Below are positions 5,581-6,683 of a DNA stretch of 34,734 nt, one piece after another; the first letter of the stretch is position 1; the number at the start of each line of letters is the position of its first letter. The position numbers and the translations under genes were made by a program. The DNA comes from a virus (lineage: Duplodnaviria; Heunggongvirae; Uroviricota; Caudoviricetes). The stretch lies in IMG/VR virus record IMGVR_UViG_2531839454_000020; one strand, written 5' to 3'. The notes beneath the pieces are model-generated. The model ran no database searches, was not told the origin of the DNA, and was given only the letters and a program-made list of their open reading frames with translations.

Positions 5581-5588
5581 TAATTTTT

Positions 5589-5613
5589 AGCCTCGCCTCG
5601 TGCGGGGCTTTTT
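5589..5613 (+). terminator. intrinsic terminator after the Rha-like gene
   Basis: agcctcgc/gcggggct stem followed by ttttt. Confidence 0.55.
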
Positions 5614-5689
5614 CATACCTACATCACGCGACTTTTCGCGCCATCTTCCACCAACTCGCCGATGGCGTTTTGGACAACCCTATAGATAC

Positions 5690-5713
5690 AAAAAAGCCAC
5701 TCCGAAGAGTGGC
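5690..5713 (-). terminator. intrinsic terminator for the minus-strand cassette
   Basis: + strand aaaaaa-gccactc-cgaa-gagtggc; on the minus strand the hairpin is followed by a U-tract, 16 nt after the stop at 5729. Confidence 0.55.
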
Positions 5714-5728
5714 AAAGAGAATCAAAAC

Positions 5729-5962
5729 TCAAAAACCTGTTGCTTCTACGATCTGACCATCACCGATCTGAACATAGAATTTAATGTCTAACTTCTTCAT
5801 ATTCTTATAGAATTGGGCAATTGAAATCCCATGTTCACTAAGAATCTGTTCTTTCGCTTCCTTACCACGATCCGCTGTATAATAAGCGTAGGCAATATCA
5901 GCCATTTGTTCAGCGTTAAAACGGGCAGGACGACCGCGAGTAGCTTTAGTAGTCATAGTCAT
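5729..5962 (-). CDS. small HTH protein (77 aa), resolvase-type HTH; paralog of 2306..2485
   Basis: GRPARF...GISIAQFYKNMKKLDIKFYVQ; GRPxKF then GI-x4-FYKxMKK resembles the C-terminal HTH of serine recombinases (recalled). Confidence 0.5.
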   Translation of the reverse strand: MTMTTKATRGRPARFNAEQMADIAYAYYTADRGKEAKEQILSEHGISIAQFYKNMKKLDIKFYVQIGDGQIVEATGF

Positions 5963-5990
5963 TTCTCCAAATTAAAGTGAATGTTCACTT

Positions 5991-6596
5991 TTATTTAGAG
6001 GACTTACATTTTATCGGAAAAAGTTCTCCATCGTCAATACTCATAAAGAACTCTGCCTTAATCCCGTACTTCTTCAACCGTGAATAGTATGTACCCCGAC
6101 TTATATCAACCTTGCGCAGCACTTCAAAGAACCCTTTAGGATCGTTGTAATAGTGGCTGTATCGCACGTTAGCGAGTTCTACAAACAATTCCCTTGTATC
6201 ACCATAGCCTTTCTTGAAAGCCTCGTTACGATAGCGTGTAATAGCGTGATTCAATCTCTTCTGTTTCAACACTTCTCGGATCGGCTTCCACTGCAACCTA
6301 TAGATAGGACCGTCATCAATGCGATAATAACGCTTGATATCAAAATCAAACCAATCTCGGACTCGCTGAAACTCTGTCTGTGAGGTGCGATACTTCTTAA
6401 AGAAGTTATGAATATCGGTATACCCATGATCACGATACAACTCGATTAAAATCTGTTTAGCTTCCTCACGACTAAAGCCAGATGTTGTGTAATCAGTCTT
6501 CTTGTGATGGTGCTTAACTGGCAAACGATATTCATGATCGGTACAACAAGAAAAGGCTAATTCTACTTCATCTCTTTGTTGCTGATTAATTAGCAT
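5991..6596 (-). CDS. HTH-containing DNA-binding protein, possible free-standing homing-endonuclease-like gene (201 aa)
   Basis: Cys/His cluster near the N-terminus ([18 protein letters not shown]); C-terminal [21 protein letters not shown] matches the HTH motif of the two small paralogs. No catalytic motif confidently recognised. Confidence 0.4.
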
Positions 6597-6683
6597 ACAA
6601 CCCCCTTAAATATTAATACCCGTATTTATCAAAATATCAACAATTTAATAAATACCTTCATATTTCGTAATGAGGGTAATTAC

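Follow-up and report, generated by a model that had tools for sequence, protein, structure and literature searches.

Small DNA-binding proteins encoded beside the terminase genes are familiar from several phages. Late activators, such as the RinA/ArpU type of Gram-positive phages, Mor and C of Mu, and Ogr and Delta of P2 and P4, are small DNA binders that switch on the packaging, morphogenesis and lysis operons at promoters without a good -35 box. RinA-type genes lie directly upstream of terS, the gene for the small terminase subunit (TerS). The small subunit of lambda, Nu1 (phrog_57), is a DNA binder of ~180-200 amino acids (aa) encoded near a large subunit (TerL) of the GpA type. Here we analyse two minus-strand genes next to the TerL gene of a caudoviral genome, IMG/VR record IMGVR_UViG_2531839454_000020, a stretch of 34,734 nucleotides (nt) that we call the window. 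The two genes encode a 201-aa protein (p201) and a 77-aa protein (p77), and we refer to them as the cassette. The cassette is a two-gene operon, fixed in and specific to a lineage of uncharacterised temperate Enterobacterales siphophage-like prophages, whose hallmarks are a GpA-type TerL, a lambda-type portal, a protease-capsid fusion and a large serine recombinase. To one reading of its function we give about an even chance, namely that p201 and p77 are transcription regulators: working at the control region that separates p201 from TerL, they would control their own expression and act as a gate for the late operon.

An earlier note, written from the letters of the window, had described the cassette as two minus-strand open reading frames (ORFs) 28 nt apart with a terminator of their own, and this description is exact (spacer at 5963-5990; Table 1). 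It also saw no plus-strand small-terminase candidate directly upstream of TerL, and neither the ORF list nor searches of Pfam and PHROG yield one between the Rha-family gene and TerL. Both cassette ORFs are real genes. They are under purifying selection (dN/dS ~0.13-0.22), and their synonymous sites are saturated in comparisons with the most distant relatives, L002 and L005. The homologues of p77 are 74-75 aa long; translation therefore probably begins at the ATG at 5956, which gives 75 aa.

The position of the cassette is conserved. We collected relatives from E. coli, Salmonella and Proteus out of complete genomes, IMG/VR and assemblies; in 28 loci the stored sequence extends upstream of TerL. 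The p201 gene lies directly upstream of TerL, in unchanged position and orientation, in all 28, and p77 follows it in 27. TerL identity among these loci ranges from 55% to 99%, and p201 is present even at 55-59%. The neighbours of the cassette vary: Rha is absent in Proteus, and p110 is present in some relatives and absent in others. The locus without p77 comes from Salmonella serovar Berkeley (L037:8590-8790), where the p201 homologue adjoins TerL. In place of p77 this locus carries three direct repeats of ~35 nt, each with a small hairpin, and its control region is shortened.

Three observations do not fit a protein that must contact TerL: recombination in one E. coli locus, the gene order in Edwardsiella and the existence of relatives without the cassette. 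In the E. coli locus (L004), a p201 allele only 51% identical to that of the window is paired with a TerL that is 98% identical, and the crossover falls inside the first 16 TerL codons. Hence there is no co-adaptation between p201 and TerL, and p201 alleles recombine freely against TerL alleles. In Edwardsiella tarda, TerL directly follows Rha and the cassette is located away from it. There, the homologues of p201 (split into 121 + 117 aa), p77 and a third protein, p64, form one leftward array with a Rep-like gene, starting from iterons. This arrangement assigns the cassette to the regulatory or early gene set and not to the packaging genes. The cassette is absent from Atlantibacter (TerL 50% identical) and from phage DCP80 (43%), where other small plus-strand genes precede TerL; in Atlantibacter a genuine endonuclease VII gene occupies the slot.

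The cassette proteins are predicted to be built from copies of one module. AlphaFold models support the helix-turn-helix (HTH) label that both proteins had been given. After a conserved N-terminal helix, p201 contains two modules (residues ~43-100 and ~135-195) connected by variable linkers, each consisting of a three-helix HTH and a beta-hairpin. A single copy makes up p77 (AF2 model, pLDDT 79), which aligns to residues 33-98 of the p201 profile, that is, to the first module (hhalign E 6e-6; BLASTP E 0.002). A fourth copy is the p77 paralogue p64 (hhalign E 5e-8 against the p77 family). The three module-coding segments are similar even at the DNA level (repeat D1), and the module consensus reads RPxxFTRE..IA..YY...GIS...FYK.LKKY.I.IK..VQV.DG (alignment A7). 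The N-terminal motif of p77 is RGRPxRF, its recognition-helix region HGISIAQFYK is invariant, and the recognition helices of p201 and p77 are altogether invariant or almost so. The description of p201 as a Cys-His protein does not survive the alignment of 23 homologues: C18 alone comes close to invariance, and variation occurs at H21 and H29-31.

No known family claims these proteins. Neither p201 nor p77 matches a family in Pfam (E<=1) or PHROG, and their profiles find only chance-level matches among PDB sequences. Among 50,697 phage records there is no match to the whole region (megablast) or to p201 (tblastn). When 1.84 billion representative proteins were searched by profile, one full-length cluster of the same lineage plus fragments came back and nothing else genuine (a match to cell-wall-binding repeats was spurious). 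With the module profile, 5.8 billion proteins yielded only hypothetical proteins from E. coli, Shigella, Salmonella, Proteus and Edwardsiella. On these searches, p201, p77 and p64 are a formerly unnamed family of small, predicted DNA-binding proteins limited to one prophage lineage. A 60-aa ORF upstream of TerL in DCP80 was considered as a p77 homologue and rejected (hhalign probability 0.1%).

Nowhere in the left arm is the DNA as conserved as in the 87-nt control region between p201 and TerL. Its conservation is 97-100%, against saturated synonymous sites in the genes on either side. The core (6622-6677) hardly varies (alignment A3), with a conservation peak of 0.97 at 6640-6669 among seven divergent loci; loci with saturated synonymous sites and a p201 that shares just 51% identity with that of the window have the same core sequence as the window. 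The core contains an inverted repeat, GTATTTAT at 6622-6629 and ATAAATAC at 6648-6655, which amounts to two outward-facing TAAATAC elements, one 25 nt before p201 and the other 28 nt before TerL. By pattern scan, positions 6635-6647 match the consensus for integration host factor (IHF), as do three other sites in the whole window.

The TAAATAC element recurs at other units. It is found seven times in the window, six of them intergenic. The copy before the post-capsid unit is kept in Salmonella and reads TAAATAT at the same place in Proteus. Furthermore, the 15-mer ATAAATACCYTCATA occurs exactly twice in the window, before TerL (6648-6662) and before the lysis unit. Each late copy of TAAATAC is followed by a leader hairpin that sequesters the Shine-Dalgarno sequence. 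The hairpin of the lysis unit has a folding energy of -15.3 kcal/mol (z -4.9); that of TerL in Edwardsiella has -14.1 kcal/mol (z -3.9), with different stem bases. We regard the TAAATAC sites as a candidate class of late-type promoters and leaders, which would include the cassette promoter. An exact-pattern scan of genome contigs for the control-region core gave no match. A search of the window for the left half of the control region (<=4 mismatches) and a comparison of words shared with the region upstream of TerS gave weak AT-rich matches only.

A second RNA structure lies at the junction of the cassette genes. The p201 stop codon lies within this hairpin, which also pairs off the p77 Shine-Dalgarno sequence. 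Nine distinct sequence variants preserve it through compensatory changes, and the stems differ in L002, L016 and L005. It looks like a translational-coupling element and has the layout that is classic for one. Such coupling argues that p201 and p77 work together in a fixed ratio. The stem of the cassette terminator is kept in relatives as well, with compensatory changes in L005 and L007. In Rfam, at gathering thresholds, no RNA family matches the window.

The two genes, the paralogy of their modules, their conservation, the junction hairpin, the common promoter motif and the lack of nuclease or TerS traits are observations; that p201 and p77 bind the control region and have a regulatory role is inferred. 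Both would be sequence-specific DNA binders made from one new HTH and beta-hairpin module. Translation of p77 would be coupled to that of p201 by the hairpin that masks the p77 ribosome-binding site. The leftward cassette operon would stand back-to-back with the late promoter and leader that serve TerL, morphogenesis and lysis. With p77 as its partner, p201 would target the control region as well as the remaining late-type promoters, and the two proteins would regulate their own operon and switch the late operon. Several facts favour regulators: the near-invariant recognition helices match an invariant DNA target, p201 keeps its place in all 28 loci while its neighbours vary, and p64 heads a putative replication-initiator operon, a slot typical of small operon regulators. 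The conservation of the control region, the TAAATAC elements ahead of p201, TerL, the post-capsid unit and the lysis unit, and the gene order in Edwardsiella favour them too. The cassette and the late units share one promoter type, and we therefore lean towards a self-reinforcing activator: activation with positive feedback is somewhat likelier than repression.

Several points weigh against regulation at this site. The left half of the control region has no second copy in the window at <=4 mismatches. The right half is at least partly explained by the RNA leader hairpin rather than by a protein site. The TAAATAC elements might be no more than atypical -10 boxes of sigma-70, working without a phage factor, and a promoter of the late type also fits a late-expressed protein with a non-regulatory role on DNA. 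The Salmonella locus with p201 and without p77 means that the pair is not obligatory. Finally, the signs that either protein binds the control region are indirect.

Table 1. Features discussed in the text. Positions and strands refer to the window unless another locus is named.
Feature	Position	Strand	Details
IS256-family transposase, 5' part	1..276	-	first 69 residues; PF00872 7e-5; runs off the window
p331	1194-2189	-	331-aa protein
p64/p60	2306..2485/2500	-	60-64 aa; single-module p77 paralogue; first gene of leftward operon p64-p331-p80
TAAATAC elements on the minus strand	6622-6628 and 2749-2755	-	
Rha-family gene	4738..5580	+	left neighbour of the cassette
Rha-operon intrinsic terminator	5589..5609	+	ends the rightward p149-p110-Rha operon; faces the cassette terminator
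Cassette intrinsic terminator	5688..5713	-	hairpin GCCACTCTTCGGAGTGGC plus T-run at 5713..5696
p77 gene	5729..5962	-	77 aa as annotated
p201/p77 junction RNA hairpin	5958..6007	-	inverted repeat I3; -21.9 kcal/mol, z -4.0
p201 gene	5991..6596	-	201 aa
Divergent control region	6597..6683		between p201 and TerL
TerL leader hairpin	6653..6678	+	anti-Shine-Dalgarno pairs with the TerL Shine-Dalgarno; -10.4 kcal/mol, z -4.2
TerL, lambda gpA type	6684..8591	+	PF05876 1.9e-56; PF20454 2.6e-44; phrog_15 6e-138
165-aa protein, gpW (head-tail joining) position	8664..9161	+	phrog_5774 1.1e-7
TAAATAC before the post-capsid unit	12900-12906 (element 12900..12925)	+	directly after a terminator, 19 nt before the first gene past the capsid gene
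Second exact copy of ATAAATACCYTCATA	29360..29374	+	27 nt before the gene preceding the M15 endolysin
Integrase, large serine recombinase	31588-33282	-	Resolvase, Recombinase and Zn_ribbon_recom domains
TerS of L001 (E. coli)	15198-15752		phrog_57 E 2.8e-15
TerS of L002 (E. coli)	14072-14623	-	phrog_57 E 1.5e-16
TerS of L005 (Proteus)	13528-14061	-	phrog_57 E 1.3e-22
TerS of L034 (Edwardsiella)	12300-12890	-	phrog_57 E 1.3e-23
TerS of L035	1893-2447		

The lineage has a small terminase of its own. The earlier note had allowed that this function lies elsewhere, either in the 165-aa ORF that follows TerL or outside the window; the second possibility is borne out and the first is not. Every relative examined carries a Nu1-like plus-strand ORF of 177-196 aa at its extreme left end. 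The full length of this ORF matches phrog_57 'terminase small subunit', and there are weak matches to Pfam Phage_Nu1 and to the N-terminal domain of lambda Nu1 (PDB). In Fastidiosibacter, phrog_57 likewise covers the canonical TerS encoded immediately before a TerL of 31% identity. In the relatives, ~6.2 kb separate the Nu1-like gene from TerL, which lies downstream of it in the same orientation. In the window, phage homology starts at base 277, which corresponds to 54 nt past the TerS stop codon in L035 (99.8% identical to window positions 277-1200), and an IS256 fragment fills the bases before it. Therefore the comparison places the small terminase gene just off the left edge of the window, where IS256-type sequence stands in for the DNA that carries this gene in relatives; the assembly probably broke inside the IS256 copy.

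Other candidates for TerS were rejected. The 165-aa protein stands between TerL and the lambda-family portal in all relatives, and its phrog_5774 match puts it in the gpW (head-tail joining) position. Likewise, p149 is very acidic, and p110 comes and goes among relatives. Neither p201 nor p77 matches a TerS in Pfam, PHROGs or PDB sequences. Across the lineage, TerS and TerL are separated by the origin, the replication operon, the early Rha operon and the HTH cassette, a split layout that is, to our knowledge, unusual for lambda-type terminases. To the right of TerL follow the 165-aa protein, the portal and the protease-capsid fusion. In Edwardsiella tarda, a gene with fused RVT_1 and TIR domains and a GGDEF gene lie directly beyond the TerS end (L034:13543-15174); they may be defence cargo or neighbouring host DNA.

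The putative origin is an ORF-free gap of 1.2 kb (2501-3745) with ~9 CCTACAC iterons (3051-3172). The gap also contains mini-hairpins of the GCGAAGC/GCTTCGC type and UUCG-loop hairpins, with no Rfam match. In 24 loci the iteron sequence co-varies perfectly with the allele of p331 and not with p64, p77 or p201. CCTACAC iterons accompany the p331 type in 9 loci, and TTGCCCCTGAA accompanies an alternative 313-aa type in 13; Proteus, L022 and Edwardsiella have other iterons. Because of this co-variation, the gap is probably the replication origin and p331 the initiator that would bind its iterons. Contig termini were also examined for signs of cos. Three contigs from metagenomes end in the gap, at differing positions, and these ends are assembly breaks.

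Could the cassette still serve packaging? As late-expressed, site-specific DNA binders, p201 and p77 might assist the terminase in finding the packaging site or in bending it. In that role they would serve as a helper that binds cosB, or as an adaptor that offsets the 6 kb between TerS and TerL, and the invariant region would be part of cos. We consider this unlikely. The place directly beside TerL in 28 loci is what one would expect of such a helper, as are a promoter type common to the cassette and the late genes and an IHF-consensus match in the invariant region, one of so few in the window. An RGRPxRF-HTH N-terminus also occurs in some small terminases; the support for this link here is one weak match of the Edwardsiella p77 homologue to phrog_24579 'terminase small subunit' (E 0.005). 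However, the lineage has a canonical, full-length Nu1-like TerS elsewhere, so no packaging role need be assigned to the cassette. The Edwardsiella cassette is not beside TerL, and the mismatched alleles of L004 speak against co-adaptation. The p201 model, with its two HTH modules, contains no predicted oligomerisation domain or coiled-coil core. The invariant region is AT-rich and largely accounted for by the two promoter-like elements and the leader hairpin, and no contig ends coincide in it. Regulation of a different sort, in which the cassette maintains lysogeny or immunity as an autonomous unit expressed from the prophage that silences the divergent late operon, seems quite improbable to us. 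Its moron-like architecture (own promoter and terminator, opposite orientation, divergent from the lytic operon) would suit a repressor, and no other repressor is recognised in the ~35-kb element. Nevertheless, it has the promoter element of the late units, a point in favour of co-expression rather than of opposite regulation. Immunity determinants usually diversify together with their operators, yet here the target DNA and the recognition helices are invariant across the lineage, and the cassette faces the late operon rather than the early one.

The gene order of Edwardsiella points to a further role, in a DNA transaction linked to replication. Here p201 and p77 would assist the iteron origin and its initiator as accessory factors, and their place beside TerL in E. 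coli would be a secondary rearrangement. The Edwardsiella homologues of p201, p77 and p64 share one operon with the Rep-like gene, starting at the iterons, and p64 always precedes the Rep-like gene. We nonetheless see only a slim chance for this role: the type of iteron follows the p331 allele and none of the module proteins, and in 28 loci the cassette is located 3 kb from the iterons with a control region of its own. The suggestion of the earlier note that a free-standing homing-endonuclease-like element had landed next to TerL is effectively refuted. The nearest outside relatives, Atlantibacter and DCP80, lack the cassette and have other small genes in the slot; therefore the cassette was placed beside TerL at some point in the history of the lineage. 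Within the lineage, the synteny comparison reveals none of the presence/absence polymorphism of p201 that a mobile gene should display in 28 loci, an outcome that the note itself had named as counting against its idea. The profile search against HNH and GIY-YIG families was negative too. For HNH, there is no Pfam match at E<=1, no PHROG nuclease match and no beta-beta-alpha-metal unit in the p201 model; for GIY-YIG, there is no Pfam or PHROG match and no motif in alignment A1. The predicted folds are HTH modules with a beta-hairpin, no metal-binding Cys/His set is conserved, and purifying selection, the conserved coupling hairpin and paralogues elsewhere in the same phage argue against a mobile nuclease. 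More speculatively, and with a low probability in our view, the two proteins may form a dedicated late-promoter specificity factor, or else a new packaging adaptor for a TerS and TerL split by the origin. As a specificity factor, a complex of three HTH modules, held at fixed stoichiometry by the coupling hairpin, would read TAAATAC late promoters that lack a -35 box and drive its own synthesis in a positive-feedback loop. Returning to late-operon regulators, the reading we favour, p201 and p77 allele types do not co-vary with the iterons of the origin.

Related prophages are ~35 kb long, and thus the window spans nearly the whole element. They interrupt ycdX in some strains, in one of which the two gene halves flank the prophage, and hicB in another strain (loci L001/L029 and L035). 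A Logan contig of 34.9 kb ends near the attachment (att) junction. In the ~35-kb element we recognised no recombination directionality factor, no CI-type repressor and no standard replication gene. A search of the literature on this ycdX prophage element returned nothing. Relatives of the region are present in 57 of 5,426 complete E. coli genomes. Among the sequenced phages of the collection searched there is no close relative of the lineage, and the best TerL match is 43% identical. That match is Escherichia phage DCP80 (PQ671644.1), a 141-kb record classed in Straboviridae. Its left end contains a lambda-type head module with TerL, a 161-aa protein, a 513-aa protein in portal position and a 666-aa protein in capsid position; this could be a chimera or a wrongly classified record. 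A variable cargo region separates the lysis genes from the serine recombinase. In the window it holds a 222-aa ORF (30846-31514, plus strand) that matches phrog_681 'endonuclease' (5.4e-17), the only homing-endonuclease-like gene seen in the window. In L001 the region instead carries a DEAD/DEAH helicase and other genes.

The analysis corrects the annotation of this locus: the cassette is neither a mobile endonuclease nor a stand-in for a missing small terminase. It adds a lineage-restricted protein family, absent from Pfam and PHROGs, to prophages of E. coli, Salmonella, Proteus and Edwardsiella. It also provides a first functional map of these prophages, with a Nu1-like TerS near att, a putative iteron origin whose initiator co-varies with it, the early operon of Rha, the cassette, and late units that have a TAAATAC element and a leader hairpin in common. 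If the cassette is a late switch, it would offer a handle for inducing or silencing these prophages. A specificity factor, if it exists, would be a new class of phage late-transcription switch.

How does the cassette compare with described systems? Its likeness to free-standing HNH and GIY-YIG endonucleases is limited to the position beside TerL and a superficially Cys/His-rich stretch. Like Nu1, p201 is a protein of about 200 aa in the slot next to a GpA-type TerL. Unlike Nu1, which combines a MerR-like winged helix with a coiled-coil assembly domain, p201 and p77 are predicted to consist of tandem HTH and hairpin modules, are encoded on the opposite strand from TerL and match no TerS profile. 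The late activators RinA/ArpU, Mor/C and Ogr/Delta share no sequence or profile similarity with the cassette proteins, and the cassette is divergent from the late genes instead of co-oriented with them. They would be the nearest functional analogues.

At the level of predicted structure, the nearest analogues of p201 are generic monomeric DNA binders with two HTH domains: MarA/SoxS/Rob, Tc3 or paired bipartite domains, and CENP-B. The HTH domains of IS3-type transposases and resolvases (HTH_Tnp_1, HTH_7, HTH_23) are structural analogues too, with all matches below the curated thresholds. Unlike those domains, the cassette modules are not attached to a catalytic domain, and the C-terminal hairpin (DIKFYVQIGDGQIV) is specific to the cassette family. 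Thus the family is new and its kind is familiar: small phage HTH regulators.

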